From Gemmatimonadota bacterium (GTDB taxonomy: Bacteria > Gemmatimonadota > Gemmatimonadetes > Gemmatimonadales > GWC2-71-9), in assembly GCA_039656555.1 (NCBI GenBank), contig JBDHLU010000005.1, positions 4,242-68,241 of the forward strand: a stretch of DNA of 64,000 bases. The letters are read 5' to 3'. Made by a program: the position numbers and the translations under genes. Every line of letters begins with the position of its first letter. Within the stretch, counting starts at the first letter, position 1. A model generated the notes under the pieces. The model saw nothing but the letters and a program-made list of their open reading frames with translations, did not search any database and was not told the DNA's origin. Shown here piece after piece: positions 5,170 through 60,690 of this stretch.

Positions 5170-5568
5170 CTACACCCTTTGCCACCGTCGTTGCCACAAT
5201 ATCGCCCCCGTCACTGATCCGGCAAGCACGACCAGGCCGAAGACCCAGGGATACCAACCGGGTTGCCCTGGCCCAGGCGCACCGCGACTCCACGCGATAG
5301 GGATGAGAAGCAAGATCCCTACGCTGGCCCCGTGGATCGCGGCATGTGAGCCGCCAAGTGCTGCCGCCACCCAACCCCCGGAAAGTGCGCTGGCCAGCGC
5401 ATATCCCAAACTGACGACCGTAAAGGTCGGGGTCACGTAGAAGACCAGACCTTCCGGGGCGGGGTCCAGCAGGAAGATGATGGCTAGGTACGTAGCTACC
5501 GACACGAGGATCATCGTAAGGATGGTCCCGACAATGATGGCCAAAGCGCTCCGGGGCAGATTGCTCAA
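5170..5568 (-). CDS. Small integral membrane protein (about 4 TM), unknown function
   Basis: Hydrophobic segments ALAIIVGTILTMILVSVATYLAIIFLL, TFTVVSLGYALASAL, GASVGILLLIPIAW, WVFGLVVLAGSVTGAILW. Start uncertain: TTG 5568 makes a TTGA overlap with the msrA stop; ATG 5514 is the alternative. Confidence 0.5.
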   Translation of the reverse strand: MSNLPRSALAIIVGTILTMILVSVATYLAIIFLLDPAPEGLVFYVTPTFTVVSLGYALASALSGGWVAAALGGSHAAIHGASVGILLLIPIAWSRGAPGPGQPGWYPWVFGLVVLAGSVTGAILWQRRWQRV

Positions 5569-6113
5569 GTGTCGACTTGGTGCGTTCGTAGCTTGTTGGC
5601 AAACCGCTGTCGGAGCTTCGCTACCTTGGGCGAGATCACCACCTGGCAATACCCCTGGTTGGGGTTCCGGCGATAGTACTCCTGGTGGTCAGCCTCCGCA
5701 GCGTAGAATTCCGGCGCTTCGCTGATCTCGGTGACTACCGGATCGTCCCAAGTTCCCTGACTCTCGAGCTCCTGAATGAGGTCGCGGGCTGTGCCTTCTT
5801 GGCTTGGCGAGTGCGTCAATATCGTCGACCGGTATTGTGTACCGGTGTCAGCGCCCTGACGGTTCAGTGTCGTGGGGTCGTGAATGGCGAAAAAGATCTC
5901 GAGGATATCGCGAAACGATATCACGGCCGGATCAAAGGTGATTTGGACGACCTCGGCGTGCCCGGTTGTCCCGGAGCATACCGCTTGGTAGGTGGGGTTG
6001 GGGTTCGCGCCGCCGGAATACCCCGAAACCACGCTCTCCACGCCATCCACCTGTTCGAAGACGGCCTCCAGGCACCAAAAGCACCCGCCGCCGAGCGTTG
6101 CAGTTTCCGTCAT
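5565..6113 (-). CDS. msrA: Peptide-methionine (S)-S-oxide reductase MsrA
   Basis: 182 aa from ATG 6113 (ATGA overlap with the DUF819 stop). Active-site motif GGGCFWCLEAVF. ..GHAEVVQITFDP.. and ..DPTTLNRQG.. are typical of MsrA. Confidence 0.9.
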   Translation of the reverse strand: MTETATLGGGCFWCLEAVFEQVDGVESVVSGYSGGANPNPTYQAVCSGTTGHAEVVQITFDPAVISFRDILEIFFAIHDPTTLNRQGADTGTQYRSTILTHSPSQEGTARDLIQELESQGTWDDPVVTEISEAPEFYAAEADHQEYYRRNPNQGYCQVVISPKVAKLRQRFANKLRTHQVDT

Positions 6114-7345
6114 CCTCCAACCGCGATTCTCATGAGTTGTCCGCAAACCCATGCTGCATAGGTACCCAGTGCATACCCCAAGACTGCGAGCAGGACTCCG
6201 ACCGGTGCCAAACTTGGGTGAAACGCCGCCGCGACGACTGGAGCTGAGGCGGCGCCGCCGACATTGGCCTGACTCCCTACCGCTAGGTAGAAGGTGGGAG
6301 CTTTGATGATCCGACCAACGATCAGGAGCAGGGTGGCGTGGATGGCCATCCATACGCCACCGACCATGAAAAGGCCCGGCCGTTCGAAGACGGCCATGAT
6401 GTCCATGTTCATGCCGATCGTTGCGACGAGAAAGTAGAGCATTGCCGAACCAACTGTGGAGGCGCCGGCTCCCTCCAGAGAACTCACGCGCGTGAAAGAG
6501 AGAATCAACCCCGCTGTGGTCGCGATTACGACCAACCAGAAAAACGAACTCGTAAGGCTGAATCGACTGAGAATCGGTACGTTCGTCTCGATCCAAGGTG
6601 CAAGGAAGTCCGCTAGCAGATGGGAGAGACCCATCACTCCGAAGCCCACCGCAAAGATCAGCATGAGGTCGGCGAGTGTGGGGATCCGTGCGTGCTTCGC
6701 ATGGAAGGCCTCGACGCGCTCCCGCAAGGCCTCGAGCGCGGTTGTGTCCGCTCCGAGCCGGGCATCGATCAGCTTGGACTCGCCGGCCATGTAAAGGAGC
6801 ACGGCCATCCAGATATTCGCGATGATCACGTCGACTGCCACCATAGCCGAAAACAACTCGTCACCGACTTCGAACACTTCCTTCATCGCGGCCTGATTTG
6901 CGCCGCCACCAATCCAGCTTCCGGCCACGGTCGTGAGACCTCGCCATACTGCATCAGGCCCCTGTCCGCCCACCACATCTGGGGCGTACACGGAGAACAG
7001 GAAGATAGAAATCGGCCCACCGATGAGAATACCCACCGTTCCCGTGCCGAACATGATCAGTGCCTTCGGACCCAAGCGCCTGATGCCTGGGAGATCGATG
7101 CTCAGGGTGAGCAGAACCAAAGTTGCGGGTAGAAGGTAGCGAGAGGCCACGAAGTATAGGCGCGATTGCTCGCCATCGATGATGCCCGCTGTGTTCAGCA
7201 AAGAGGGAAGGAAGTAGCACATCAACAACGCCGGCACGTACTTGTAGAACTTGCGGAATACAGGGTGCGGTGAGTGCGACGTGTAGAACACAGCTCCGAG
7301 AATGACAGCCAGAAGCCCTAGGACGACGGCATCGTTGGTAATCAT
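6110..7345 (-). CDS. DUF819-family polytopic membrane protein
   Basis: 411 aa with at least 10 hydrophobic helices. The N-terminus MITNDAVVLGLLAVILGAVFYTS...KFYKYVPALLMCYFLPSLLNT resembles the DUF819 family (from memory). Confidence 0.65.
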   Translation of the reverse strand: MITNDAVVLGLLAVILGAVFYTSHSPHPVFRKFYKYVPALLMCYFLPSLLNTAGIIDGEQSRLYFVASRYLLPATLVLLTLSIDLPGIRRLGPKALIMFGTGTVGILIGGPISIFLFSVYAPDVVGGQGPDAVWRGLTTVAGSWIGGGANQAAMKEVFEVGDELFSAMVAVDVIIANIWMAVLLYMAGESKLIDARLGADTTALEALRERVEAFHAKHARIPTLADLMLIFAVGFGVMGLSHLLADFLAPWIETNVPILSRFSLTSSFFWLVVIATTAGLILSFTRVSSLEGAGASTVGSAMLYFLVATIGMNMDIMAVFERPGLFMVGGVWMAIHATLLLIVGRIIKAPTFYLAVGSQANVGGAASAPVVAAAFHPSLAPVGVLLAVLGYALGTYAAWVCGQLMRIAVGG

Positions 7346-7357
7346 GATGCGGCCACT

Positions 7358-7819
7358 CTATACCTCCTCAATGTCGGCAGTCCAGCTGATATGGACCGCA
7401 CCTGCAAGCGACTGTGCAGTCGGGCATTTGGCTTGGTGGGTTTCCAACGCGCGGTCGACCTTCTCGCGCATCTCACCCGGAACCCGCAACCGATACCGAA
7501 TGTTGATTGCGGTCAACACCGGGATCTTGTCCCGCACCTCATTGATGCCTTCGACCTCCGCGGTGATCGCGTCGGCCGGCATCGGTATCCCGCGCACCTC
7601 CAGTGCGCCGTTGAGTGTTCCCAGCATTCACCCGGCAGTGCAGGCGACGATGTAGTCGACGGGCAACGGCAGGTCTTTCGCATCTATCCGATAATGTTTC
7701 TTGATCGCGCCGTGCACGCCAATATCGAACGTAGTGCCGGCGGCCTCCAAGTGGGCTCGTCGGTGCACGCCTTCGATCTTCTCGATGCGGGCACGAGCCA
7801 CATAGAATGGTTTCGTCAT
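7358..7819 (-). CDS. OsmC/Ohr-family peroxiredoxin-like protein interrupted by an in-frame TGA (7628-7630). Either a selenocysteine-containing OsmC-like protein or a nonsense-mutated pseudogene
   Basis: Track ORFs 7628..7819 (63 aa) and 7358..7627 (89 aa) are contiguous and in the same frame. Joined product: ...LPVDYIVACTAG[TGA]MLGTLNGALEVRGI...ALETHQAKCPTAQSL.... The TGA sits 11 residues after the conserved Pro, as does Cys59 of E. coli OsmC (NPEELIGAAHAACFSMAL). The second conserved Cys (CP motif) is intact. Confidence 0.6.
7592..7608 (-). promoter_or_regulatory. SECIS-like stem-loop downstream of the in-frame UGA
   Basis: mRNA reads UGA AUGCUGGGAACACUCAACG GCGCAC UGGAG GUGCGC GGG. This is a perfect 6-bp GC-rich stem with a 5-nt loop holding GG. 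The stem starts 19 nt after the UGA and the loop G residues lie about 27-28 nt downstream, inside the range usually quoted for bacterial SECIS elements. Confidence 0.4.
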
Positions 7820-7834
7820 TCAACTAGCTCCAAT

Positions 7835-8614
7835 TCATCGTTTCCGTCGGGAGAATTTGAGGCCGGACCACGTTTCGTCAATCGCGCAGATCTTGAAATC
7901 GACCAGGCTATTGGCGAGTCCGGTGCTACGGACGGCGTTCTGAGTGACGTCGGTGACGACACCAGAACTCTGTTTGGGCCATGCAATCCAAATGGCACCG
8001 TCGCCGACGGCGCTGGCAAATGCTGTGATCCGACGTTGGAGATCACGGTGTGACTTCGTGAACCAGATCGTGAGGTCGCGCTTCCCACGCGCCGACCGAC
8101 GGAACGTAACGTTTTCAGGAAGGGGTGTCAGCATGCCTTCGAAGTGGTCCGGCGCGCTCACCAACGCGACGGTGAAGCCGGGCTTGATGCCGAGTTTCTT
8201 GACGAGAGGCGTTCCCGAATACCCCGCCATGATCGACGTAGGGACTAACGGATCTGTTGGTGGAGTTGCCAGTGCCTTCTTGATGGCGCTCTTGTGTCGG
8301 CGCCATGGCGCGAAGACCGCGTCGGGAACTCGAGTTTTGGCTTTTGCGACCTTGGCGGGCTCTCCATCGAGGAAAACGATCGGCAGGTGACGCGTGGCCT
8401 TACGACTCCGAATGTCGAGGGCGAGGTCGCGGCCCACTGAAGGCGCGCGACTCAGGTCGATGACAACGGCATCGGGTGGTCGCTTCCGTAGCTTCTGAAG
8501 CATTTCCGGCGCTACGGCATCAAAGGCGACCGTGTATCCGGAGTTACGCAGTTGTGCAATGCGTTCCTTGGCCTCGTTGGCATTCGCGTGGATGAGCCGG
8601 AGCCGTCGTTTCAT
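7835..8614 (-). CDS. Receiver-like (atypical REC) domain fused to a DUF3052-like domain
   Basis: 259 aa. The N-terminal ~115 aa has a CheY-like pattern (..PDAVVIDLSRAP.., ..LPIVFL..) but lacks the N-terminal acidic pair (RLIHANANEA instead of DD). The C-terminal ..GYSGTPLVKKLGIKPG..VALV.. resembles DUF3052 (from memory). Confidence 0.55.
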   Translation of the reverse strand: MKRRLRLIHANANEAKERIAQLRNSGYTVAFDAVAPEMLQKLRKRPPDAVVIDLSRAPSVGRDLALDIRSRKATRHLPIVFLDGEPAKVAKAKTRVPDAVFAPWRRHKSAIKKALATPPTDPLVPTSIMAGYSGTPLVKKLGIKPGFTVALVSAPDHFEGMLTPLPENVTFRRSARGKRDLTIWFTKSHRDLQRRITAFASAVGDGAIWIAWPKQSSGVVTDVTQNAVRSTGLANSLVDFKICAIDETWSGLKFSRRKR

Positions 8615-10771: not shown

Positions 10772-11020
10772 CTACTCGTTTCCCTGCCCGAGCTGGGCTT
10801 GTTGTTTAACTTCCGTGAGGACGCGCTCGTGAAAATCGAGGCGCTCCTCGAGCTCCAACATGCGGCTCTCCAGCTCTTCCACCCGTTCGTCTGAGGCGGA
10901 GACGGGCTTCGCCGTACTTGCCATGACCTTTCTGATGACGGTGAAGGCCCCGACCCCAAGCACAGCGATCGTGCTGGCAACCATCATGAACCCGACGACG
11001 GGAATCAGGTCATAAGGCAT
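10772..11020 (-). CDS. Small single-pass membrane protein with C-terminal coiled coil (PspB-like architecture)
   Basis: 82 aa. N-terminal TM IPVVGFMMVASTIAVLGVGAFTVI, then RVEELESRMLELEERLDFHERVL. Start overlaps the end of the upstream FAD-subunit gene. Confidence 0.5.
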   Translation of the reverse strand: MPYDLIPVVGFMMVASTIAVLGVGAFTVIRKVMASTAKPVSASDERVEELESRMLELEERLDFHERVLTEVKQQAQLGQGNE

Positions 11021-12023
11021 TCGGCCCCCTTAAACGATGTCGGTCGCGGAGTTCGCGAAAGGCGCGAGCTACAAACTCGCGGGTCATCTCTTTCCGCCAG
11101 CCCAGTCCGAAATCGGTATTGTCCATGGGCTTGGCCGGTTTGAACGCAGCGTCTGCTGCTGCGGCGATGTTCTCATCCTCTAGGCTCGAGCCGATCACGG
11201 CCTGTGCCGACTCAGGCACGTCGTATGGGTAGCTGGCGACGGCACCGAGCACAACTCTCGCGTCGGCGATGAGGTCGCCTTCCCACCGCGCCCACGCTGC
11301 GACGCCGAGCACCGGAAAGTCGAAGGAACCTCGCCGTCGCAGCTTGAGGTACGTTGCATCCCATCCGTCGACGGCCGGTAATTGCACCTCAGTGAGAATC
11401 TCGTCGGGCTGTTTTGACAGGTAGACAATTCCATCATTGTTGAAGAAGTTGGCGGCTGGCACTACGCGCTCGCCTTTCGGGCTCACCAGAACGAACTCCG
11501 CACCGATGGCCACCATGACCGGAGCTGTGTCGCTCGAATTGACCGCCCAACATCTCGGGCTCGATGGTGCGACCCAGCAGATCTTGCCGTCCTTCTTCAT
11601 GCAGAAGTCGATCGACTTCCGCCATTCGTAGCTCTGGTTGTAGTAATTGCACCGTGTGTCTAGGCAGAGGTTCCCCCCAAGCGTGCCCATGTTCCGGAGT
11701 AAGGGCGTACTCACGAGGTAGGCTGCTCGAGCAAGCGCCGGGTGTGCTCTCAACACTCTCTTGTGCGTGTGGAGATCGGTCAATGTGACGCCGGCGCTTA
11801 CCGACATCGCCGATCCCTTGGTGCCACCGGTGATCCGCTTCAACGCTTTGATCCCACCAAGTGCGATGACGACCTTAGGTTCTTGGTGGCGCCGTTTCAT
11901 GTTCGGGTATAAATCCGTTCCCCCGGCGACGTACGTCGCATCCGGCCCGTAGTCGCTCTTCATCTTGAGCGCTTGGTGCAGCGTCTTCGGTTGCAGGTAT
12001 CGAAATGACGGAAGGCGCAGCAT
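11010..12023 (-). CDS. Xanthine dehydrogenase / CO dehydrogenase-family FAD-binding (medium) subunit
   Basis: 337 aa. FAD-binding ..YVAGGTDLYPNMK.. and ..NMGTLGGNL... Adjacent to the large and small subunits. Confidence 0.85.
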   Translation of the reverse strand: MLRLPSFRYLQPKTLHQALKMKSDYGPDATYVAGGTDLYPNMKRRHQEPKVVIALGGIKALKRITGGTKGSAMSVSAGVTLTDLHTHKRVLRAHPALARAAYLVSTPLLRNMGTLGGNLCLDTRCNYYNQSYEWRKSIDFCMKKDGKICWVAPSSPRCWAVNSSDTAPVMVAIGAEFVLVSPKGERVVPAANFFNNDGIVYLSKQPDEILTEVQLPAVDGWDATYLKLRRRGSFDFPVLGVAAWARWEGDLIADARVVLGAVASYPYDVPESAQAVIGSSLEDENIAAAADAAFKPAKPMDNTDFGLGWRKEMTREFVARAFRELRDRHRLRGPNAL

Positions 12024-12026
12024 GAT

Positions 12027-14465
12027 CTATTTCAACGCCTTCCCGTTGCCACCTTCCCAGGGGGGTGGCACACGTATGGCGTCGGGCCACGGAACATCGG
12101 GGAACGAGGTCGGACCGACCCGCGGTTCCTTGCCGGCCGCTTTCTGTTTGAGTGCCTTCTTCACTTTCTCTGCTGTGATCGGCACCTCGTCGATCCGCAC
12201 TCCAACCGCATCGTACACGGCGTTGGCCAGAGCAGGGGGGACTGGAAGCAGCGGTCCTTGCCCGACTTCCTTGGCGCCGAAAGGCCCGTTCGGATCCGGG
12301 TCTTCGATGAGGTAGGTGACGACGTCGCACATCTCGAAGGTCGTCGGGCTCTTATACTCGAGCATGCTGGGAATCTTGTGAACGACCTGCTCGTTGGTAC
12401 GCAGGCGATACGCCATCTCTTCCATCAACGCTTCGCCGAGTCCCATGTAGACGCCGCCTTCGACCTGTCCCATCACACTTGCTGGATTGATCGACTGTCC
12501 GATGTCGTGGCCAATCCAAATGCGAGGAACCGTGATGATGCCGGTGTCGGGGTCGACTTCGGCCTCCACGATGGCGGCACTGTACGAGTACGTAGGTGAA
12601 GGTCCGACCCCTGCCCCTCGGTAGCGACCGGGACTGCGAGGCGGCGAGTACGACCCGACGGTGCCAACCGTTCCCTGTGCTGCTTCGGCAAGCTGTACCG
12701 CGCCAGCGAAGGTTACACCCTGGTCGGGATGCTCGGCGTCGACCACCCGGCCTTCGGCAAAGACCAGGCGCTGCACTGGAATCTCCAGCTTCTGGGCGAC
12801 ATGGGTCGCCAGTATGTCTCGTGCCCGTTCGGCCGCCTGCACCGCCGCATTCCCGGTCATGAGTGTGACTCGACTCGAGTAGCTGCCCAGGTCTACTGGG
12901 GTAAGCGACGTGTCTCCGGCAATTACCTGGATGTCCTGCATGTCCAGGCCGAGGACTTCCCCGACGATGTGGGCGAGGATCGTGTCGGACCCTTGCCCGA
13001 TTTCCGTAGAGCCACAGAACACCGTAACGCCACCGCCACGATCGAGCTTCAGTTGCACGCCCGAGTGCGGCATGTCGTTCCAATAGATGGGAAGGCCTGC
13101 GCCGGTCAGGTAACTGGAGCAGGCAAGACCAACACCTCTACCATAGGGGAGCTTACGGAACTTATTAGCCCAGTCCGAGCCTTCCACCACCTTCTCTATG
13201 CATTGGCGCAGACCAATCGTGCCGATCTTGATCCAGTTCGCCGTCACGCTGTCTGGCTTGGCGAGGTGTTGCAAGCGGATCTCAGCCGGATCGACGTCGA
13301 GGTCTTCAGCCAGCTTGTCGAGGTGCACCTCGAGCGCAAAACGGGGCTGTGGCGTGCCATGACCCCGCTTCGGACCGCAGGGCGGTTTGTTGGTGAAGGC
13401 GCGTGCACCCTGGAATCGATACCGCTCTATTTCGTACGTGACGGTCTGGAGCGCTCCCGTGTAGTACGTGCTTGCAACGCCATAGGAACCGTAGGCACCT
13501 CCGTCGAGCAACGACCGGAAGTGCATACCCTTGATCCGGCCAGTCTCGTCGACACCAGTTCGCACCGACATCAACACGGGGTGGCGGCCGCGATGGCAGT
13601 AAAAGACCTCTTCTCGCGTGAGGGCGATCTTCACGGGCCGGCCCGTCAACATCGCCATCTTGGCGGCCACCATCTCGTGGCTGAAGGGATCGCTCTTGCC
13701 GCCGAACCCGCCGCCGTTCGGGCAGGCGATCACTCGTATGCGGGCGGGCGGGAGTTCCAACACTTCGGCGAGCGCACGATGCACGTAGTGCGGTGTCTGC
13801 GTGGAACTCCACAGTGTGATCTTCTCGTCGACCCATTGTGCCACGCATGCGTGCTGTTCCATGGGAAGGTGTGTGTTGCCTTCGAAGAACGAAAAATCTT
13901 CGCGCACGTGATGTGCGTTGGCAATCGCTTCGTCGACATCACCGAACTCGAGGTGTACCAGCTTATGGATGTTGCCGTGATCTCCATAGTCGTGAATCGG
14001 GTCATCCGTATCGCGCAATGCGTCTTGCGGCGTACGAACACATGGGAGTGACTCATACTGCACGTCGATCAATTCCAGCGCAGCGGTGGCGATTTCTTCG
14101 GTCGTTGCAGCAACAGCCGCGACGGGATCACCTACGAAGCGGACTCGATCGAGACACAACGCATGTTCGTCCTGACTGACCGGAAGAATGCCGAACGGGA
14201 TGGGAAGCGTCTGCCCGGTCATTACGGCTTTCACGCCGTCGAGGGCCTCCGCCTTCGACGTATCGACCGACACGATGCGGGCATGGGTCTCGGTGGATCG
14301 GAGGATCCTGCCGAACAGCATGCGCGGGAGTTTGATGTCATCCGCAAAGACCGTTTGGCCTGTGACTTTAGCAAACGCGTCAACTTTGCGACGAGGTTGA
14401 CCAACCAATCGCAAGGCGGGAAGGGTCGGCCCGTTTGGGATCGAGCCTACCTTACCGTCTCCCAT
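12027..14465 (-). CDS. Xanthine dehydrogenase-family molybdopterin-binding (large) subunit; substrate unknown
   Basis: ..CPNGGGFGGKSD.. and ..GTEIGQGSDT.. motifs. Start set at ATG 14465, preceded by GGAGGAG; the track ORF starts 54 nt further upstream. Confidence 0.85.
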   Translation of the reverse strand: MGDGKVGSIPNGPTLPALRLVGQPRRKVDAFAKVTGQTVFADDIKLPRMLFGRILRSTETHARIVSVDTSKAEALDGVKAVMTGQTLPIPFGILPVSQDEHALCLDRVRFVGDPVAAVAATTEEIATAALELIDVQYESLPCVRTPQDALRDTDDPIHDYGDHGNIHKLVHLEFGDVDEAIANAHHVREDFSFFEGNTHLPMEQHACVAQWVDEKITLWSSTQTPHYVHRALAEVLELPPARIRVIACPNGGGFGGKSDPFSHEMVAAKMAMLTGRPVKIALTREEVFYCHRGRHPVLMSVRTGVDETGRIKGMHFRSLLDGGAYGSYGVASTYYTGALQTVTYEIERYRFQGARAFTNKPPCGPKRGHGTPQPRFALEVHLDKLAEDLDVDPAEIRLQHLAKPDSVTANWIKIGTIGLRQCIEKVVEGSDWANKFRKLPYGRGVGLACSSYLTGAGLPIYWNDMPHSGVQLKLDRGGGVTVFCGSTEIGQGSDTILAHIVGEVLGLDMQDIQVIAGDTSLTPVDLGSYSSRVTLMTGNAAVQAAERARDILATHVAQKLEIPVQRLVFAEGRVVDAEHPDQGVTFAGAVQLAEAAQGTVGTVGSYSPPRSPGRYRGAGVGPSPTYSYSAAIVEAEVDPDTGIITVPRIWIGHDIGQSINPASVMGQVEGGVYMGLGEALMEEMAYRLRTNEQVVHKIPSMLEYKSPTTFEMCDVVTYLIEDPDPNGPFGAKEVGQGPLLPVPPALANAVYDAVGVRIDEVPITAEKVKKALKQKAAGKEPRVGPTSFPDVPWPDAIRVPPPWEGGNGKALK

Positions 14466-14991
14466 AGATACTCTCCTCCGTCGGCCTAGCTTCCTCGCCA
14501 CGCATTTGGGCTGCGGCAAGTTCTACGGCCTCGTAGATCTTCAGGTAACCCGTGCACCGGCACAGGTTGCCGGCCAACGCATCCTTGATCTCATCACGGG
14601 ACGGACTCGGATTGTCTTCGATCAATTTCTGCGCAGTGAGAAGAAACCCCGGCGTACAGTAGCCGCACTGGGCGGCACCGAGGTCGGCGAACGTCGTTTG
14701 TAGAGGATGCAAGTCCGGCCCGTTTGCCATTCCCTCGACGGTACCGACGCTCCGCCCTTCGCAAGCAAGCCCCAGGACCAGACACGACAACACGGGCTGA
14801 CCGTCGAGTAGTACCGTGCAGGTGCCACACTCGCCCAATTCGCAGCCGTGTTTTGTTCCGGTGAGGTCGAGGTCCTCGCGGAGCACCTCGAGCAGCGTCT
14901 TGTGTGGAGCAAAGGCGACCTCGGTCGGGTCGCCGTTCAGCACCAACTTGATGTGTGCCTTGCCGTCAGCCTCAGCTCTGTGGCTGGCCAA
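14452..14991 (-). CDS. (2Fe-2S)-binding small subunit of the Mo-hydroxylase
   Basis: 179 aa with cluster motifs CELGECGTCTV, CGYCTPG and CRCTGY. Confidence 0.9.
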   Translation of the reverse strand: MASHRAEADGKAHIKLVLNGDPTEVAFAPHKTLLEVLREDLDLTGTKHGCELGECGTCTVLLDGQPVLSCLVLGLACEGRSVGTVEGMANGPDLHPLQTTFADLGAAQCGYCTPGFLLTAQKLIEDNPSPSRDEIKDALAGNLCRCTGYLKIYEAVELAAAQMRGEEARPTEESIYGRR

Positions 14992-43467: not shown

Positions 43468-46416
43468 ATGACCTCCCAGATCGACCGCCTCAAGACCGCA
43501 CTGGCCGACCGGTATGCCATCGAGCGCGAGATTGGCTCGGGTGGAATGGCCACGGTCTACCTCGCGGAGGACCAGCGCCATCACCGTAAGGTGGCGGTCA
43601 AGGTGTTGCGCGAGGATTTGGCGCAGGCGTTGGGCGCCGAGCGCTTCTTGCGGGAGATCGAGATCGCGGCGCAGCTCCAGCACCCGCACATCCTGCCGTT
43701 GCACGATTCCGGGAGCGACGACGGGATCCTCTGGTACGTGATGCCGTACGTGGAGGGGGAATCGTTGCGCGAGCGGCTCGATCGCGAAGGGGAGCTGCCC
43801 GTCCAGAGTGCGACGCGGATTCTGCGCGAAGTGACTGACGCGCTCGCCAAGGCCCACCGGCAAGGCGTGGTCCATCGGGACATCAAGCCCGACAATGTCA
43901 TGCTCTCGGACGGGCACGCGGTCGTCACCGACTTCGGGATCGCCAAGGCCGTGAGCGAGGCCACCGGTGCGCAGAACATCACGACAGTGGGGGTGGCCTT
44001 AGGCACTCCCACCTACATGGCACCGGAGCAAGCCGTGGCCGATCCGAACGTGGACCATCGCGCCGACATCTATGCGGTGGGTGTGCTCGCGTACGAGATG
44101 CTGGCGGGCCGGCCGCCGTTCCAGGGTCCCAATCCGCAAAGCGTGCTGTCGCAACACGTCACCGAAGCGGCGGAACCGGTGACGAAGCATCGCAGGGCGG
44201 TGCCGCCCCGGCTCGAGGCGGCGATCATGCGATGTTTGGAAAAGAAGGCGGCCGACCGCTGGCAGACGGCCGACGAGCTGCTGGCCGAATTGGACGCGTT
44301 GGCGACACCGAGCGGTGGGACCACACCGATGCCGGCGGCGCCCGTTGCGCGACCGGCCTCAAACGGTAAGCGCGTGGGGATCGCGGCGGTGACTGTCATG
44401 GCGGCACTCGCCGCTGTGTTCTTCGTGGTCGATCCGTTTGGTGGTGAGGAGCCCGCGGTGCTCGACCCGGAGGTCGTGGTCGTGCTGCCGTTCGCGGTCA
44501 CGGGCCCACCGGACCTGCAATGGATCGGCGAAGGGATCGTCAACCTGTTCGAGAGCAACCTTGCGCGGAGCGAGGGGCTGCACGCGGCAGCGTCACAGGC
44601 GTCCATCTCGGCGTGGAAACGGGCCGGCGGATTCGACGCGGGGCCAGAAGGTGCGCGGTCGACGGCGATCGGACTGGGCGCGGGGTTATTGCTTCAGGGC
44701 AACATGGTCGGATCGAATGACCGGATCACCGTCAACGCGACGCTCACCTCCCTGATCGACGAGACGGAAGAACGCGCGACCGAATCCGGCAGCGTCGACA
44801 GTCTCGCGACGATCGCGCAGCGACTGTTGGGCCAACTCGTGGCGCTCCAGGCCGGTGCGGATGCGGAGGTTGCCGCGGTACTCGGCGACGTCCCGCCGGC
44901 CGCACTCCGTGCCTACCTCGTTGGCGAGATTTCCTATCGCGCCGGTGCCTTCGATTCGGCGTGGGCCCAGTTCGGCCGGGCAATCGCGATTGACTCGACG
45001 TTCGCACTGGCCGCGTTGGGGCATGCGAGAACGAGCGGATGGATGCTGTCGCAGCCGGCGTCTCCAGGTATTCGATTGGCGTGGGCCAACGTGGACAAGC
45101 TGCCCGAGCGCGACCGGCTCTTCCTCGGAGCCATCCGCCCGAACTACCCCAACCCGATTAGTTACGTCGATCGCTTCGAGGCAATGGATCGTGCCACGCT
45201 GGTGATCGGCGATCGGGCAGAGCTGTGGTACTACCTCGGCGACCGGGCATTTCATTACGGCCAACTGGTGGGGCTGACACTCCAACAGGCCGAGCAACAA
45301 GCCTGGGCCGCCTTCGAGCGGGGGCTAGCCATCGATCCGGCGTTCGGCGGGATCAACACGCACAAGTTCGACCGCGCGCTCATGCACGAAGATTTTGTTT
45401 TGTACGACGCGGTCGCCGACTCGTTTCCCGACATCGCCGCGACACATTACCTCCGTCTTGCCGCGGCAGTGGCGAAGGATGACTCGGCTGCCGTTGCGAA
45501 ATGGTTCGCCGAAGTGCCGACCATGTCGTTCAACGACATATGGGGATCAACCGGGACGGTCTCCTTCTTTGCTCGCGACCCCACCATGGGGACGCGTGTG
45601 GCGGAACTGGCGCTCACGAGAGCGACGACGGAGCAGGAGCGTACGGCCGTATTCGACGCGATGCGCGCCGCCTATTGGAGCGGTGGACGGCCCGGTGACG
45701 CTGCTCGCGTGACCGACCGCATGTACAGCGAGCTCAGGAACGCCCGCCGCGACGATCCGAGGCTCATTCAGGCGGCGCTGTTCCTGGACGGTGATCGTGA
45801 GCAGGCAGAGGCGGTAGCTACGGACATCGAGCGCTCGTCGTACTTCACTGGTGACCTGTCCGGTGCCTCGGCGAGCGAGATCACCCGCGTGTGTTTCTCC
45901 GCCCACTGGCGACTTGCGCTGGGCGATTCGTCGGCAGCGCGACGTGTGGCGCAAAGACTGGCCACAGTGAGCACGGAACGCGGGTCGAGTGGCGCGGCGG
46001 TGCGCGCCTACGTCTGCGCCCTCGAGTTGGAGGCACTCATGAGTGCGCCGAACGCGCGGGCAGATCTTGTGGCACGGCTGGACTCCATTGGCGCAACTGG
46101 ACCGGCCATCTCGTCCGCTGGCCGGAACCGACTTGGGGCCGTGCTTGCGCAGTTGTACGGCTTGGCGGGGCAGCCGGAACGCGCCATGCGGGCAGCGATG
46201 CGCTTTGATGGGTTCGATTTCTGGGGTTGGTCAGCGTCGGTTCGAGAAGCGACTCGGTACGCCATCGCCGTGGGCGATACGGTCAACGCCGCGACCATGT
46301 TGGACTACATGTTGGACTACTATCTCCGTTCGCGCGGTAATGCGGAGCCTGGGCTCAAGGCCGAAGACGATGCGCTCCGCGAGGCATTCGCGCGGTTGGT
46401 TGGGGAGGGGCGGTAA
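43468..46416 (+). CDS. Membrane Ser/Thr protein kinase with extracytoplasmic TolB-N-like module and a large TPR-like helical domain
   Basis: 982 aa. GSGGMATVYLA...VAVK, HRDIKPDN, DFG, APE motifs. TM IAAVTVMAALAAVFFVV. ..VVVLPFAVTGPPDLQWIGEGIVNLF.. module, then an alpha-helical repeat region. Confidence 0.85.
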   Translation: MTSQIDRLKTALADRYAIEREIGSGGMATVYLAEDQRHHRKVAVKVLREDLAQALGAERFLREIEIAAQLQHPHILPLHDSGSDDGILWYVMPYVEGESLRERLDREGELPVQSATRILREVTDALAKAHRQGVVHRDIKPDNVMLSDGHAVVTDFGIAKAVSEATGAQNITTVGVALGTPTYMAPEQAVADPNVDHRADIYAVGVLAYEMLAGRPPFQGPNPQSVLSQHVTEAAEPVTKHRRAVPPRLEAAIMRCLEKKAADRWQTADELLAELDALATPSGGTTPMPAAPVARPASNGKRVGIAAVTVMAALAAVFFVVDPFGGEEPAVLDPEVVVVLPFAVTGPPDLQWIGEGIVNLFESNLARSEGLHAAASQASISAWKRAGGFDAGPEGARSTAIGLGAGLLLQGNMVGSNDRITVNATLTSLIDETEERATESGSVDSLATIAQRLLGQLVALQAGADAEVAAVLGDVPPAALRAYLVGEISYRAGAFDSAWAQFGRAIAIDSTFALAALGHARTSGWMLSQPASPGIRLAWANVDKLPERDRLFLGAIRPNYPNPISYVDRFEAMDRATLVIGDRAELWYYLGDRAFHYGQLVGLTLQQAEQQAWAAFERGLAIDPAFGGINTHKFDRALMHEDFVLYDAVADSFPDIAATHYLRLAAAVAKDDSAAVAKWFAEVPTMSFNDIWGSTGTVSFFARDPTMGTRVAELALTRATTEQERTAVFDAMRAAYWSGGRPGDAARVTDRMYSELRNARRDDPRLIQAALFLDGDREQAEAVATDIERSSYFTGDLSGASASEITRVCFSAHWRLALGDSSAARRVAQRLATVSTERGSSGAAVRAYVCALELEALMSAPNARADLVARLDSIGATGPAISSAGRNRLGAVLAQLYGLAGQPERAMRAAMRFDGFDFWGWSASVREATRYAIAVGDTVNAATMLDYMLDYYLRSRGNAEPGLKAEDDALREAFARLVGEGR

Positions 46417-46433
46417 GGGAATAACATCTCGCA

Positions 46434-46690
46434 GCACTCGCCTCACCTGCCATGCGCTCCCTCCGCTACACTCGTGCTCACCGGCCATGCGCTCCCTCCG
46501 CGCACTGCGCCGCGCCACTCGTGCTCACCGACCATGGCTCCCTCCGCGCACTGCGCCGCGCGAGTACGGTGAGATCTCGACCAGGTGAGCGCGCGCCAAC
46601 GTGCGCTGCGGGAGCCATGGTCGGCTCGCACTCCCCACTGAGCGCGCGCTGACGTGCGCTCTGGGAGTCATGGCCCGTTCGGCTCGTCAC
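46434..46690. repeat. Cluster of GC-rich REP-like elements: 3 direct plus 2 inverted copies of a ~45-50 bp unit
   Basis: The unit core CCATG(G/C)CTCCC-n3-GCGCAC-n4-6-GCGCGC occurs directly at ~46450, ~46485 and ~46532. It occurs inverted at ~46583-46620 and ~46640-46673. Copy 3 and the first inverted copy share perfect CCATGGCTCCC / GGGAGCCATGG arms. Confidence 0.8.
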
Positions 46691-47123
46691 TGATTGGGGT
46701 AAAAGAGTGTGTGCAGGGAGCGGTTTGTTGCGGCCACCGAAGCCCTTGAGGGTTCCTACCCCGTCGCATGTTGCGCACTTGGCCGGGCGCCTCCAACGCC
46801 GTCCCGCTCCGGCGCTGGGCCCAACCGAGTTGGCTTAGTTTCTCGGGGCGATCCCGGACGGCGAACTCGGCATACTTCAACACGGCCCTCGTGCTGCCGA
46901 CGAGGTCGTCGAGCGCCTCGTCTTTCATCGCGTGCTGCTCGCGAAACGCCGTCTCGGCGCCGACGGTCGCGGCGCGCGCTTGTGCGTAGCGGTCGAGCTT
47001 GGCCTGCAGCTCGGCCGGGGGTACCGGCGGCGTCGGAAAGTCCGCCGCCGCGTGTTCGAGCCCGTCAGCCACCAGCGCGGCAAGCGCGGCGATCTCGGAC
47101 TCGGTTTCGGGAAACTGGGCCAT
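46668..47123 (-). CDS. Hypothetical protein, probably 3'-truncated
   Basis: 151 aa. The N-terminal ~115 aa looks coding (MAQFPETESEIAALAALVADGLEHAAADFPTPPVPPAELQAKLDRY...LSQLGWAQRRSGTALEAPGQVRNM). The tail RRGRNPQGLRWPQQTAPCTHSF.. looks non-coding, and the last ~8 codons lie inside a REP-like copy. Confidence 0.45.
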   Translation of the reverse strand: MAQFPETESEIAALAALVADGLEHAAADFPTPPVPPAELQAKLDRYAQARAATVGAETAFREQHAMKDEALDDLVGSTRAVLKYAEFAVRDRPEKLSQLGWAQRRSGTALEAPGQVRNMRRGRNPQGLRWPQQTAPCTHSFTPISDEPNGP

Positions 47124-47152
47124 GATAGACTCCTCGCATGAGTGAGAAAGGG

Positions 47153-47545
47153 AGAAAACGGCAGGGAAGTGCTGAAACGGCAGCGCCGCGACGCGAAATG
47201 GCAGATCGCGAGTTCGAAAAGCCGAATTGGGAATTGCCAGACGTCAAATCCGAATTGCCAGACGTCAAATCGGAATTGCCAGACGCCAGATCGGAATTGC
47301 CAGACGCCAGATCGGAATTGCCAGACGCCAGATCGGAATTGCCGGACGCCAAATCGAAATTGCCAGACGTCGCATCGGAATTGCCAGACGGCAAATCGGA
47401 ATTGCCAGACGGCAAATCGGAATTGCCAGACGGCAAATCGGAATTGCCGGACGCCAAATCGGAATTGCCAGACGCCGCATCGGAATTGCCAGACGCCGGA
47501 TCGGAATTGCCGGACGCCGGATCGGAATTCCGATCGGGCGGATCG
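47153..47545. repeat. 21-bp tandem repeat array: 14 well-conserved units (47231-47524) flanked by degenerate units
   Basis: The consensus is GAATTGCCAGACGNNNNATCG. The variable tetranucleotides, in order, are TCAA x2, CCAG x3, CCAA, TCGC, GCAA x3, CCAA, CCGC, CCGG x2. Decayed copies with 21-bp phasing lie at 47153, 47174, 47195 and 47216, with a degenerate unit at 47525-47545. All six reading frames are largely open across the array. Confidence 0.95.
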
Positions 47546-47696
47546 AACGGGGCACGCATCGATCACGGGACCGCCCTCCCGATCATGACGGCGGTGTTCG
47601 CGGCGCCAAGCAGGCCCAACGCCGTCCAGTGGGCTCGTCAGCATGGTGTGCAGGCGATACCTTCGCATCGAGTCCCACGATCTCACGAGGCATCTT

Positions 47697-49160
47697 ATGC
47701 GTTCGCTGCGAATCCCCCTGTGCGTAGCCGTAGCTTCCTTCTCGCAATTGGCCGCCGCGCAGGAACCCGTTTATCACGACGTCATCGCGCAGATAAAGGC
47801 CGAGGGGCTGGAGCGCTCGCAGGTCATGGAGACGTTCAATGTCTTGACCAACGTGATTGGGCCACGGCTTACCGCAACGCCGGCGTTCAAGGCGGCGGCG
47901 GACTGGTCTGCCGCCCAGCTTGAGGCGTGGGGCATGGCGAATGTCCACTTGGAAGAATGGCCGTTCGGTCGTGGGTGGACGCTCGAAGGCCTCACGTTGG
48001 AGATGACGGGCCCGCGCTACTTCCCGCTATTCGGCTATCCGGAGGCATGGACACCGTCGACATCGGGTGAACTCGTTGGCGAGCCGGTGTACGTCGGCGA
48101 CAAGACCGCCGATCAGATTCGCGCGATGTCACTTGCGGGGAGAATCATCCTCACCGAGCCGCCGCAGCCCGCGTTCATCAAGAACGACCGCGAGCAACCG
48201 CTCGACGCGGCCGATGCCGTGCGTATCGGTGCGCCGCGACGCATCCGTAATCCGGGCGCAGTGAGTGGCCGCGAGTTGTCGGAACTGATGCAGACGGGTG
48301 GTGCGGGAGTAATTCTGCGACCGAACCAGGGTGAGCATGGCACCATCTTCGTGCTGGGGCGCAACTCGACGCCGAACGATGCCGTGCCGGTCATCGTGAT
48401 CGCCTCGGAGCACTACAACATGATCGTGCGCATGCAGGATGCCGGCGTGCCGGTCACACTCCGGGTGAACCTCGAGATCCAGTACCACGAAGCGGACACG
48501 AATGGTTACAACGTCATCGCTGAGATTCCCGGCACGGACCCCGATCTCAAAGACGAGATCGTCATGGTGGGTGCGCACCTCGACTCCTGGCACTCGGCGA
48601 CCGGAGCCACAGATAACGCCGATGCGTCCGCCTCAGCGTTGGAGGCGATGCGGATACTCAATGCAATAGGTGTTCAACCTCGGCGCACGATTCGGCTGGC
48701 GCTCTGGGGCGGAGAAGAGCAGGGGTTACACGGTTCACGCAACTATGTCGAGCGGCACTTTGTCGGTGACGCGAACGCCGAGGAGCGCGACAACTTCAAC
48801 GTGTACTTCAATCACGATCCTGGCCTGGGAATGATCTACGGTTTCTACTTGGAAGAAAACGAAGCCGTGAGACCGATCTTCGATGCGTGGCTCGAGCCGC
48901 TAAAGGACATCGGCGCGCGGGGCAACAGGATCGAGAAGATCGGAAGCACGGATCACGTGAGCTTTGTGCGGAACGGTCTTCTGGCTTTCAACACGCTGCA
49001 GGACTACAAGGATTACGACGTTCGCACCCATCACACGAATACGGATTTCTACGAGCGATTGAGCGAAGAGGAATTACAAGAGGGTGCGATCGTGCTCGCG
49101 ACGTTCTTGTACCACGCTGCGATGCGGGATAAGAAGATTCCGCGGGACTTGACGCCGTAG
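47697..49160 (+). CDS. Secreted M28-family aminopeptidase with PA domain
   Basis: Start at ATG 47697, giving signal MRSLRIPLCVAVASFSQLAAAQEP. Motifs ..VMVGAHLDSWH.., ..TDNADASA.., ..WGGEEQGLHGS.., ..STDHVSF... Confidence 0.85.
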   Translation: MRSLRIPLCVAVASFSQLAAAQEPVYHDVIAQIKAEGLERSQVMETFNVLTNVIGPRLTATPAFKAAADWSAAQLEAWGMANVHLEEWPFGRGWTLEGLTLEMTGPRYFPLFGYPEAWTPSTSGELVGEPVYVGDKTADQIRAMSLAGRIILTEPPQPAFIKNDREQPLDAADAVRIGAPRRIRNPGAVSGRELSELMQTGGAGVILRPNQGEHGTIFVLGRNSTPNDAVPVIVIASEHYNMIVRMQDAGVPVTLRVNLEIQYHEADTNGYNVIAEIPGTDPDLKDEIVMVGAHLDSWHSATGATDNADASASALEAMRILNAIGVQPRRTIRLALWGGEEQGLHGSRNYVERHFVGDANAEERDNFNVYFNHDPGLGMIYGFYLEENEAVRPIFDAWLEPLKDIGARGNRIEKIGSTDHVSFVRNGLLAFNTLQDYKDYDVRTHHTNTDFYERLSEEELQEGAIVLATFLYHAAMRDKKIPRDLTP

Positions 49161-49228
49161 GCCACTTCCCGTTCTAGCCGGGCGGGATGGTTGTTACCGG
49201 TAGGCGGTAGGGGCGCTATCTTGGTCCC

Positions 49229-52063
49229 GTGTCCATGATCGAACAGTTGAACGCCGGGTTGGAGGGTCGCTACGTCGTCGAGCGCGAGCTTGGCGCCGGT
49301 GGTATGGCAACCGTCTATCTGGCCCAGGATCTCAAACACCGTCGGCAAGTGGCGCTGAAGGTATTGCGGGAGGATGTGGCGGCCACCCTGGGGGCCGATC
49401 GGTTCCTGCGCGAGATCGAGATCGCGGCGGGTCTCCGCCATCCACATATCCTGCCCCTGTACGATTCGGGTACGGTTGGGAACGCGTTCTTCTACGTGAT
49501 GCCCGTGGCCGAAGGCGAATCACTTCGAGAACGGATCGATCGCGAGAAGCAACTCCCCATTCCCGATGCGCTGCGGATCGGGAGGGAGGTGGCGGATGCC
49601 TTGGCCTACGCGCACAGTCACGGCGTCGTGCACCGCGACATCAAGCCCGAAAATATCCTGCTCGAGTCCGGTCACGCGGTCATCGCTGATTTCGGGATTG
49701 CCCGTGCCGTCGATACCCATGGCGGCAACGTGACGCTCACCGAAGCGGGCATGAGCATCGGCACGCCGACCTACATGAGTCCCGAGCAGGCGAGCGGCGA
49801 ACGTGACGTCGACGGCCGGAGCGACCTCTACAGCTTGGCGTGCGTGGTCCACGAGATGTTGACCGGGGAGCCGCCGTTCACGGGCCCCACGGTCGAAAGC
49901 ATCATCCGGCAACACATCACGGCCGACCCACCCACGGTCACGGTGCTGCGCTCGACCGTCTCCGAGAAGGTTGCGTCGTCGATCGTAACGGCGTTGGCCA
50001 AGATCCCGTCCGACCGGTTCAGCACGGCGGCGGAATTCGGGGCAACGCTGGAAACCAGCGATGTGCGGCCGCCGACGATGGCCGTGCCATCGGCTCGGAC
50101 GTCAATGCGGAGGCCGGTCGCTTTGATGGCGGCGGCACTCGTCGTGGTTGCTGCGACTGCGGCATGGTTTATCACTCGCGATGGAGGCGGTGTAGCCAAC
50201 GGTATCGTCGAGCGAGACTGGATCCTCGTGGCCGCGTTCGACGGGTCCGCCGAAGACCATGAACGCGGCATGGCGCGGGAGTTCGTACGGACGGCACTCG
50301 ACCAATCGTCCATCGTCGTCACGATCTCCGATCAGGACATGCGCCGTGGCTTGGAGATGAGTGGGCGGCCCGATACTACGCGCGTCGACGCCCAACTTGG
50401 CCGTGAACTCGCCGTCCGGGCCAGCGTCCGCGCGGTCGTGACGGGGCAGATCGACCGGATTGGAAACACGTATCCCATCGTATTGCGCGTGATCGGCGCT
50501 GACTCGGGTGACGTCATCGTTTCCGAACGAGCTATTGCGCAGTCCGCCGACGACCTCATCTCGACGGTAGACGATGCCGTGCGGGGCATCCGAGAACAAC
50601 TCGGTGAGCGGCGATCCGCGATTCGGGCCAACCGCCCGCTCCGCCAGGTGATGACGCCGTCGTTCGAGGCGTACGAGAAGTTCGTGGAAATGGAAGCCGA
50701 GATGCGGACGACGGGCCGCCAGGGTCGTGCGGTCAATCTGTTGCGCGAGGCTCTGGTAATCGATCCCGAGTTCGCTTCGGCGCGGCTCGCTATGTGGGCA
50801 CGATTCATCAACCGGGGTTGGCAGGATTCCGCCCGCGCGGCCATCGAAGATGCGTTGGCGATTCCCGGACGGCTCACGGAGCTCGAGCGGATGCGCGCAC
50901 GCGCATCGTTGGCCTTGGTCGAGTGGAACGTGCCACGTGCGGCCCAAGCGTATGAAGAGTTGCTTGCTCGGTATCCCATGACGGCAGGGGCGCTTACGAA
51001 CCTTGGTGTGGCGGTGGGGCAGCTGGGACGCACAGAGGAGGCGTTGGAGATTTACCGGCGGGCACCGGATCCCTTTGGTACCAACACGATGAATCTCTGG
51101 AACAAGAGTGAGGCCCTGATGACCCTGGGGCGGTTCCGAGAGTTGGACTCGCTCATCGAGGTGATGCCGGAACAGTGGCAGGAAGGGCGGACGTCGGCGG
51201 CGTTGATTGCGGAACGCCGGTTCGATGCGGCCGACAGCATGCGGGCACAGGGCCTACGTGAAGATCCGCCTCGGAACGCCCAGCAGCGCGGTTGGGTGCA
51301 GTACAACCAGGCGATGGCCGGCATCGTCCGTGGGAGAGTCGAGAAAGCCGGCGCCAGTTTACAGGAGCGTGCTGAATTTGTAAGCGAGCAAGGATGGGAC
51401 GTTCAGGGTCGCGGTTTCTTCGAAGAATCGAAATTGATCCATTCCCTGAGCGCCGGACGACCGATCCCACCCTCTATGTTCACTCCGCAGGACACGAGCG
51501 TCGATGCCCAGTTGCTCTTTGGCGTGAGCGCGGCACTGAACGGCAATGAACGAACCGCGCGCGACATACTCTCGGCGGTCCGAGCGCGCGACGAACGAGA
51601 TCTCGCCTGGTACGGTGGGGGGCCGCTCGTGTTGGAAGCCGCGATCGCCGCCGGTAATGAGGATTGGGAAGAGGTGACGAACCTCCTCGGCCCCGCTGGC
51701 CATTGGAACTGGCCGTACTCGACCTTCCGGGGCACCAATTGGGCCATCGTCTCATGGCTCCTGTTGGGCGAGGGGTACGAGCAAACCGGCCAACTAGACT
51801 CCGCGGCAGCGTACTTCGAATTGTTGGGCACTCCCGGTGAGTACGTACGGCGTGATGACATCCAGCGTGCGGGTCTTACCTATTCGTTTGCGCACTTTCG
51901 CCGAGGTCGGATTCTCACGGAGCTGGGCCGAACTGAGAAAGCCCGCGAGGCGTGGTTGACGTTTCTAGACGCCTTCACGGACCCTGATCTCGACTACGAG
52001 TGGATGGTGACCGAGGCGAATGAGTCGTTGGCGCGTTTGGCGGGAGAGACGGTCGGCAACTAG
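49229..52063 (+). CDS. Membrane Ser/Thr protein kinase with TPR-like extracytoplasmic domain (paralog of 43468..46416)
   Basis: 944 aa, GTG start. GAGGMATVYLA...VALK, HRDIKPEN, DFG, SPE. TM VALMAAALVVVAATAAWFI. Helical-repeat C-terminus. Confidence 0.85.
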   Translation: MSMIEQLNAGLEGRYVVERELGAGGMATVYLAQDLKHRRQVALKVLREDVAATLGADRFLREIEIAAGLRHPHILPLYDSGTVGNAFFYVMPVAEGESLRERIDREKQLPIPDALRIGREVADALAYAHSHGVVHRDIKPENILLESGHAVIADFGIARAVDTHGGNVTLTEAGMSIGTPTYMSPEQASGERDVDGRSDLYSLACVVHEMLTGEPPFTGPTVESIIRQHITADPPTVTVLRSTVSEKVASSIVTALAKIPSDRFSTAAEFGATLETSDVRPPTMAVPSARTSMRRPVALMAAALVVVAATAAWFITRDGGGVANGIVERDWILVAAFDGSAEDHERGMAREFVRTALDQSSIVVTISDQDMRRGLEMSGRPDTTRVDAQLGRELAVRASVRAVVTGQIDRIGNTYPIVLRVIGADSGDVIVSERAIAQSADDLISTVDDAVRGIREQLGERRSAIRANRPLRQVMTPSFEAYEKFVEMEAEMRTTGRQGRAVNLLREALVIDPEFASARLAMWARFINRGWQDSARAAIEDALAIPGRLTELERMRARASLALVEWNVPRAAQAYEELLARYPMTAGALTNLGVAVGQLGRTEEALEIYRRAPDPFGTNTMNLWNKSEALMTLGRFRELDSLIEVMPEQWQEGRTSAALIAERRFDAADSMRAQGLREDPPRNAQQRGWVQYNQAMAGIVRGRVEKAGASLQERAEFVSEQGWDVQGRGFFEESKLIHSLSAGRPIPPSMFTPQDTSVDAQLLFGVSAALNGNERTARDILSAVRARDERDLAWYGGGPLVLEAAIAAGNEDWEEVTNLLGPAGHWNWPYSTFRGTNWAIVSWLLLGEGYEQTGQLDSAAAYFELLGTPGEYVRRDDIQRAGLTYSFAHFRRGRILTELGRTEKAREAWLTFLDAFTDPDLDYEWMVTEANESLARLAGETVGN

Positions 52064-52066
52064 CGG

Positions 52067-52133
52067 GAGAGGGCGCAGGACAAAGGTCGCAGGGCGCAGG
52101 GTTACATCTCTTCGTCCTCCGTCCTTCGCCCTC
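52067..52133. terminator. Imperfect GC-rich hairpin between convergent kinase genes
   Basis: The left arm is GAGGGCGCAGGACAAAGGTCGCAG. The right arm, reverse-complemented, is GAGGGCGAAGGACGGAGGACGAAG (19/24 pairing). The left arm also holds the direct repeat GGGCGCAGG x2. Confidence 0.35.
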
Positions 52134-52136
52134 TAA

Positions 52137-54836: not shown

Positions 54837-54938
54837 AAAAAGCGATTTAAGATTACAGAATAGAGAGCACAGAATTTAGATTGCCCCACACCACACCCGT
54901 TCTTAGATCTGTATTCTGTGATCTGAATTCTAAAATCA
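54837..54938. repeat. AT-rich 102-bp conserved inter-kinase spacer (copy 1), imperfect palindrome of GATYACAGA-type words
   Basis: aaaaagcgatttaAGATTACAGAATagagagCACAGAATttagattgccccacaccacacccgttcttagatctgtATTCTGTGATCTgaattctaaaatca. There are 92/102 identities with 57618-57719. The arms ...AGATTACAGAAT... and ...ATTCTGTGATCT... are inverted. Confidence 0.85.
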
Positions 54939-57617: not shown

Positions 57618-57719
57618 AAGAAGCGATTTAAGATTACAGAATAGAGATTACAGAATTTAGATTGCCCCACCCCACACCGATTCTTAGATCAGCATTCTGT
57701 GATCCAAATTCTAAAATCA
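57618..57719. repeat. AT-rich 102-bp conserved inter-kinase spacer (copy 2)
   Basis: aagaagcgatttaagattacagaatagagattacagaatttagattgccccaccccacaccgattcttagatcagcattctgtgatccaaattctaaaatca. About 90% identical to copy 1, with the same length and the same position relative to the flanking stop and start. Confidence 0.85.
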
Positions 57720-60434: not shown

Positions 60435-60515
60435 CGGACTAAGATGGGGTTCGTAACGGGGTTTCGCCATCCACGGCTGAAGCCGCGGCTCGGCTAGAAG
60501 ACTGCCGCTAGCTTA

Positions 60516-60638
60516 CTCGTCGAGCGTTGGCGGCCGGGCGACGAGCGGCCCGAGACAGTTGACGGCGAGCTGCGCTGGGAATTGAGCGTAGGAGTGTCGG
60601 GAGCGTTGGACGTCGCGAAGCTTTTCAAGAATCTCTAG
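60516..60638 (+). pseudogene. 3' remnant of a Uma2-family endonuclease gene
   Basis: It translates as ..ERWRPGDERPETVDGELRWELSVGVSGALDVAKLFKNL*. This parallels the last ~40 codons of the intact Uma2 gene (..ERWCIGNERPEIVDGELRWELSVGVSGVVDVAALFEKL*, 63856-63975). No 5' part is present. Confidence 0.7.
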
Positions 60639-60690
60639 CTCCGGCCAGCAAATCTCAGGTTTGTAATCTGTAATCTAAGATCTCGAATCA

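Follow-up and report, generated by a model that had tools for sequence, protein, structure and literature searches.

A putative selenocysteine-containing OsmC-like gene, with a covarying hairpin behind its in-frame UGA, in Gemmatimonadota and Acidobacteriota

Selenocysteine (Sec) in the place of a peroxidatic cysteine is a textbook pattern. In Escherichia coli OsmC, we take Cys59 to be the peroxidatic and Cys125 the resolving cysteine, following the OsmC/Ohr literature. OsmC-like selenoproteins were first reported in 2005 from the Sargasso Sea, as three sequences of COG1765 with the motif UxxT (Zhang, Fomenko & Gladyshev; PMC1088965); they were found again in GOS (PMC2398784) and have been included in reviews from 2022 and 2026. 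A preliminary description of the locus discussed here, made from the DNA letters, had suspected that a Sec-containing OsmC would not be new at the family level, and the 2005 report bears this out. Given the textbook pattern and the place that OsmC-like selenoproteins already have in reviews, the gene described below is not conceptually surprising. Judged by its sequence, it appears to belong to a separate OsmC clade that has Sec at the homologous site; it would work like the published OsmC-like selenoproteins and lies outside their curated family.

The gene is located on the minus strand of a 64,000-nucleotide stretch of Gemmatimonadota DNA, which is called the window and to which all of the positions refer. 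A reading frame that starts with the ATG at 7819 and ends with the TAG at 7360-7358 is broken once, by a TGA at 7628-7630. The two open reading frames at 7628..7819 and 7358..7627 therefore share one frame and have this TGA as their sole separator, as first described. When the TGA is read as Cys, the joined 153-residue product matches Pfam OsmC (PF02566) with E=6e-13 and 49.5 bits against a cut-off of 27.5, which agrees with the earlier view that it is a full-length OsmC-like protein. The residues flanking the predicted Sec64 are ...IVACTAG-U-MLGTLNGALEVR. The features of the gene are the following.

7358..7819, minus strand: putative Sec-containing OsmC-like gene, complete, 153 codons from ATG 7819-7817 to TAG 7360-7358 (open reading frames and Pfam OsmC)
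7628..7630, minus strand: in-frame UGA, predicted Sec codon, residue 64, at the peroxidatic position (TGA in 88/88 loci, Cys in 25/25 intact homologues, aligned with E. coli OsmC Cys59)
7592..7608, minus strand: SECIS-like hairpin in the coding sequence, with a 7-bp stem (7608-7602 with 7598-7592) and the apical loop GGA (7601-7599)
7424..7426, minus strand: TGC of Cys132, the predicted resolving Cys, in a C-P-T-A motif (invariant in alignment A1, aligned with Cys125 and with the second Cys of 1ukk)
7828..7831, minus strand: ribosome-binding site GGAG, 8 nt upstream of the ATG (direct reading of the sequence)

The TGA is located 11 residues past Pro53, a spacing that had been likened to that of the catalytic Cys59. 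A family profile alignment places residue 64 on Cys59 of E. coli OsmC and Cys132 on Cys125, so both the position of the TGA and the intactness of the second Cys in the CP motif hold. The same two residues align with the two conserved cysteines of Thermus thermophilus OsmC (1ukk), which is the only PDB entry matched by sequence (E=4.5e-5). An AlphaFold model of the 153-residue product has a pLDDT of 87.3 and a pTM of 0.83, and the best 50 PDB matches in a structure search with this model are all OsmC or Ohr proteins, the best again being 1ukk (E=2.8e-7). In addition to Cys132, the residues R9, R20, E90, R118 and E119 are invariant in alignment A1.

The protein from the window has an extra Cys at residue 60 (window 7639-7641), four residues before the Sec, which gives the sequence V-A-C-T-A-G-U and a CxxxU arrangement. 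This Cys is also present in L001, L010-L013, L038, L041 and L045, and in most of the family the residue is Ala or Thr. In the sub-lineage with Cys, it could act as an alternative resolving thiol.

Of the 1447 homologues that a protein search retrieved, a striking share are only 89-97 residues long and span just the C-terminal 58% of the query. These short proteins are explained by gene callers that halt at the TGA and restart at the next ATG. At the DNA level, 88 related loci cover the TGA column; eight come from genomes (Gemmatimonadota and Acidobacteriota MAGs) and 80 from metagenomes (sediment and soil). All 88 encode the whole protein, with 56-96% identity, and have TGA in exactly this column; TGC or TGT occurs there in none of them. 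The 25 intact full-length proteins among the database matches all have Cys in this column, in the motif G-C-M-L-G-T. An exhaustive search of representatives added three more distant lineages (33-42% identity), which also have two abutting open reading frames with a TGA at the junction.

The preliminary description had noted a coding-like texture on both sides of the TGA and had proposed that relatives be checked for decay and for Cys or TGA at the same column. In pairwise comparisons of 78 distinct complete genes, the part upstream of the TGA has a median dN/dS of 0.30 and the part downstream one of 0.29, and none of the 86 complete genes has a frameshift or an additional stop. The terminal stops of the 78 distinct genes are TGA in 55, TAG in 16 and TAA in seven, and the internal codon is TGA in all 78. 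On a rough neighbor-joining tree of the 78 Sec and 25 Cys forms, a minimum of only two Sec/Cys switches is required, and the Sec forms group into large clades that are pure.

A ninth genome locus, from an Acidobacteriota MAG contig (L009, 5001-5258), has only the C-terminal half and the hairpin. Its N-terminal half is missing, the upstream sequence is unrelated and a 1-nt difference breaks the TGA-ATG junction; either the locus is what remains of a truncated gene or the assembly is chimeric.

The hairpin first described with the stem GCGCAC/GUGCGC is indeed present. In the mRNA it reads GCGCACU-GGA-GGUGCGC, begins 19 nt past the UGA and has its loop 26 nt from it. It was compared across loci in an ungapped alignment of 88 sequences, 74 of them distinct, from the UGA to position +57. 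The 7-bp helix, formed by columns 23-29 with 33-39, has standard pairs in 100% of the 518 cells from the 74 distinct sequences, and the GGA loop is invariant among the related loci. The helix is maintained while its bases change. Two pairs have compensatory changes: at pair 27-35, 51 sequences have A-U, 20 have G-C and three have G-U, and at pair 26-36, 69 have C-G and five have U-A. None of 500 shuffles reached the observed covariation or pairing, and when the register is slid the pairing drops to 17-70%.

The compensatory changes in the stem swap the encoded peptide from A-L-E-V to V-L-E-A or A-L-E-A. The clearest signal comes from synonymous sites, which are frozen inside the hairpin. The stem contains a Gly codon that is GGC in 73 of the 74 sequences, whereas all four Gly codons occur at a Gly site four positions upstream. 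The loop G comes from a Leu codon that is CTG in 74 of 74, whereas five codons are in use at each of two Leu sites nearby. Likewise, the entropy at four-fold sites is 1.2-1.9 bits in the flanks of the hairpin versus 0-0.9 inside it. These patterns indicate that the hairpin is under selection as RNA. Five Cys-form genes served as a control. Three of them have CTC as the loop codon and a broken helix (5/7 pairs). The hairpin is retained in the other two, whose encoded peptide G-A-L-E-V-R is identical, and this was counted against the Sec reading. From these two genes it follows that, in GC-rich codon usage, the peptide itself predisposes to the hairpin and that part of the structure comes free. 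As far as these alignments indicate, maintenance of the hairpin without exception is confined to the Sec forms.

A published model of bacterial SECIS elements (bSECIS) has an upper stem of 4-16 bp, a UGA-to-loop distance of 16-37 nt and a minimum free energy (MFE) of -7.5 kcal/mol or lower (PMC13188914). The hairpin agrees with this model in four of four criteria, with a stem of 7 bp, a distance of 26 nt, the loop GGA (or U-GGA-G) and an MFE of -10.8 to -14.5 kcal/mol, and so the compatibility with SECIS elements that had been suggested for it stands. When the minus strand is folded, as had also been proposed, the stability of the hairpin is not exceptional compared with shuffled sequences; the z-score is 0.03 over 81 nt and -1.75 over 60 nt. 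Because these single-sequence statistics are not significant, the significance of the hairpin rests only on the comparison across loci. A search of the window against Rfam, at both gathering and permissive thresholds, gave no match to a SECIS or any other family.

The hairpin recurs at an unchanged offset in two of the distant lineages, where it covaries further, as GCGCCCU-GGC-AGGGCGC in L098 and GCGCACU-GGA-AGUGCGU in L100. The locus L097 (198-257; about 42% identity, motif A-G-U-M-T-G-T) has the TGA, but at the usual offset a hairpin is not clearly seen (fold z=+0.93), so its SECIS, if any, must differ.

Genes for Sec decoding were sought in several ways. Pfam annotation of about 50 open reading frames across the 64-kb window revealed no SelA, SelB or SelD, and neither the window nor about 400 kb of related loci had a tblastn match to the three E. 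coli proteins. With ARAGORN, tRNA-Sec was absent from the window, which is without any tRNA gene, and from 91 loci. However, sel genes need not be linked to selenoprotein genes, and so their absence from the window and the fetched loci is absence of evidence only. Even so, this gap is what most limits our confidence in the Sec reading. No other convincing TGA-split gene is present in the window, since each candidate has one "half" that consists of Arg/Pro-rich out-of-frame sequence. The searchable literature yielded nothing specific on Sec use in Gemmatimonadota or in this OsmC clade.

We consider it very probable that this is a functional Sec-containing OsmC-fold gene in which the UGA at 7628-7630 is read as Sec by means of SelB, Sec-tRNA(Sec) and the hairpin. 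The preliminary description had proposed the replacement of Cys by Sec at a peroxidatic site, and the Sec/Cys pair, the alignment with the catalytic Cys and the conserved, covarying bSECIS-type hairpin all point the same way. The hairpin, which lies inside the coding sequence with its G-G-A loop 26 nt downstream, would recruit SelB and Sec-tRNA(Sec) to the UGA, and we infer that selA, selB, selC and selD are present in this genome. The product would be a 153-residue OsmC-fold thiol/selenol peroxidase with Sec64 in place of the peroxidatic Cys. A peroxidatic/resolving mechanism is expected from the conservation of the two catalytic Cys columns, in which U64 aligns with Cys59 and C132 with Cys125. 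By analogy with OsmC/Ohr, Sec64 would attack a hydroperoxide and become a selenenic acid, Cys132 would resolve the latter to an intramolecular selenenylsulfide, and presumably a cellular dithiol reductant would reduce the selenenylsulfide.

Other explanations of the TGA can be considered. Taken by itself, the window sequence would allow a recent nonsense mutation, as the preliminary description had pointed out, a sequencing error or a decaying pseudogene, because a single substitution turns TGC or TGT into TGA. However, the TGA occupies the same column in 88 independent assemblies that differ widely in identity, the complete genes are free of frameshifts and extra stops, dN/dS is about 0.3 on both sides and the tree has large pure Sec clades with few switches. 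This explanation is therefore refuted in all three versions, and we regard its chance as negligible. A reassigned genetic code was also considered and rejected; TGA is an ordinary stop in the source genome, where it terminates many open reading frames of the window, and it ends 55 of the 78 OsmC-like genes themselves.

Another explanation is a split gene. The UGA would terminate a 63-aa chain, the adjacent AUG would re-initiate an 89-aa chain and the two chains together would form an OsmC-like fold without a peroxidatic residue. The invariant AUG directly 3' of the UGA (UGA-AUG) and the 89-aa open reading frame that gene callers predict in very many genomes fit this arrangement, and purifying selection on both halves is predicted by it too. 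However, the Cys forms have an equally invariant Met after this column (C-M-L-G-T), which makes the AUG a protein constraint and not a restart signal, and a plain stop would be expected to drift among TGA, TAG and TAA as the real stops of these genes do. The split would also leave the covarying hairpin and the frozen synonymous sites unexplained, and one catalytic residue would have been deleted while the resolving Cys stayed invariant. We judge such a gene to be quite improbable. The same low probability applies to read-through of the UGA by a near-cognate or suppressor tRNA that inserts another amino acid, e.g., Cys or Trp. Full-length translation of this kind fits the selection on both halves, and the Sec machinery was not found in the window or the fetched loci. 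Against it, the loop sequence, the stem length and the distance of the hairpin all fit the bSECIS model, which is SelB-dependent, and the position is the redox-active Cys column, a classic site of Sec/Cys exchange; moreover, the long fixation of an inefficient codon that is one mutation away from TGC or TGT is hard to explain unless Sec is advantageous.

The preliminary description had placed the gene in a tightly coupled redox-repair string with msrA, and two genes of the window are relevant.

6110..7345, minus strand: DUF819 membrane protein gene that starts 12 nt after the OsmC stop (PF05684, E=1e-93)
5565..6116, minus strand: msrA, Cys form with the motif GCFWC (PF01625, E=3e-64), whose inferred start at about 6116 overlaps the DUF819 stop

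The tight spacing is thus real in the window, with its 12-nt gap and its overlap, and as a family feature the string was rejected. Among the related loci, the DUF819 neighbor occurs only in L010-L013 and a linked msrA only in L001, L010 and L011, so the linkage is lineage-specific and limited to the nearest relatives. With crude open reading frame calling that includes shadow frames, no neighbor is common to more than 12 of the 88 loci, and the gene therefore behaves as a stand-alone unit.

Directly upstream of the Sec-OsmC gene, at 7835-8614, is a gene for a 259-aa protein that has no Pfam family and a sub-threshold match to a receiver domain; relatives of it are near the Sec-OsmC gene in eight other loci, in varying orientation. 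The window has several other features of some interest. The gene cluster at 11010-14991 encodes the FAD-binding, MoCo-binding and 2Fe-2S subunits of a three-subunit molybdenum hydroxylase of the xanthine/CO-dehydrogenase type. Six consecutive paralogous Ser/Thr protein kinase genes (about 890-980 aa) occupy 43468-63441; C-terminal PD40/WD40-like beta-propeller repeats are clear in four of them and TPR repeats in one. A 21-bp tandem repeat at 47230-47529 (14.3 copies, 92% matches, consensus GGAATTGCCAGACGCCAAATC) is just upstream of, or overlaps the start of, an M28 peptidase open reading frame (47643-49160), and one of its frames reads NCQTPDR heptapeptides.

The public annotation of the clade would be worth correcting. 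The best 120 of the 1447 database matches include no full-length Sec form, so the mis-annotation is systematic; every close relative is recorded with a length of 89-97 aa, and the names given to the Sec forms among P0007-P0120 are "OsmC family protein", "organic hydroperoxide reductase OsmC/OhrA" and "hypothetical protein". The only Sec-aware NCBIfam model for OsmC, NF041052, misses the clade, and a dedicated model would fix many gene calls. Overall the clade is a small one: 1.84 billion representatives contain 191 clusters of it at 50% identity.

Three groups of known or related proteins can be compared with the window gene. OsmC (E. coli b1482 and T. thermophilus 1ukk) and Ohr have the same fold and conserve both catalytic columns, but they have the peroxidatic Cys where the window protein has Sec, and the sequence identity is only about 17-23%. 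The window protein also fails the TIGR03562 model for an OsmC subfamily, with 24.6 bits against a cut-off of 85.8, a score equal to the one it obtains with NF041052. The nearest relatives with Cys form a sister clade (for example P0001, P0024 and P0026; 50-60% identity) that shares the length, the predicted fold and the invariant motifs G-x-M-L-G-T and H-Q-x-K-C-P-T-A with the window protein. Its members differ in having TGC at the catalytic codon and, in three of five genes, a broken hairpin. Unlike the Sec forms, they also have a conserved gene context of COX15-CtaA/UbiA haem-A and cytochrome-oxidase assembly genes, GHL15 and SQS_PSY. In L090 and L092, genes for haem A synthesis (COX15-CtaA/UbiA) and for cytochrome c oxidase lie divergently to the Cys-form gene, and genes for GHL15 and squalene/phytoene synthase come after it in L090, L092 and L094.

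The OsmC-like selenoproteins of the Sargasso Sea and GOS surveys are the third group. Like the window protein, they have an OsmC fold with Sec in the peroxidatic-Cys column (P-x12-U in both), a second conserved Cys and Cys-containing homologues. In both, the coding sequence after the UGA contains a hairpin with 7 bp and a 3-nt loop that starts with G, the loop being GUA in the Sargasso family and GGA in the window. However, the two proteins are only 28% identical over 40 residues, and the NCBIfam "OsmC-related (seleno)protein" model NF041052, with a cut-off of 95 bits, gives 157.4 bits to a Sargasso representative versus 24.6 to the window protein, which fails it. The redox motif is U-M-L-G-T (UxxxT) in the window clade and U-L-L-T (UxxT) in the Sargasso family; the UGA-to-loop distance is 26 versus 20 nt, with a different codon register, and about 45 additional N-terminal residues form a beta-hairpin region in the window protein. 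The hosts differ as well, GC-rich Gemmatimonadota and Acidobacteriota on the one side and AT-rich marine plankton on the other.

Taking the comparison as a whole, we lean slightly towards the view that the window clade is an undescribed, separately evolved second Sec-bearing branch of OsmC, that it is ancient and widespread in Gemmatimonadota and Acidobacteriota of soil and sediment, that it has been mis-annotated as 63-aa and 89-aa fragments and that its SECIS pairing dictates an Ala/Val swap in the protein. If this view is true, Sec decoding would be common in phyla without a documented trait. With this gene, Gemmatimonadota and Acidobacteriota, both of which are abundant in soil and sediment, would join the phyla that decode Sec. 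The hairpin, with its A-L-E-V, V-L-E-A and A-L-E-A peptides, is a clean natural case of an RNA structure that constrains a protein. A second Sec-bearing lineage with the OsmC fold, next to the one from the Sargasso Sea, would be useful for understanding why peroxidatic Cys-to-Sec exchanges recur.
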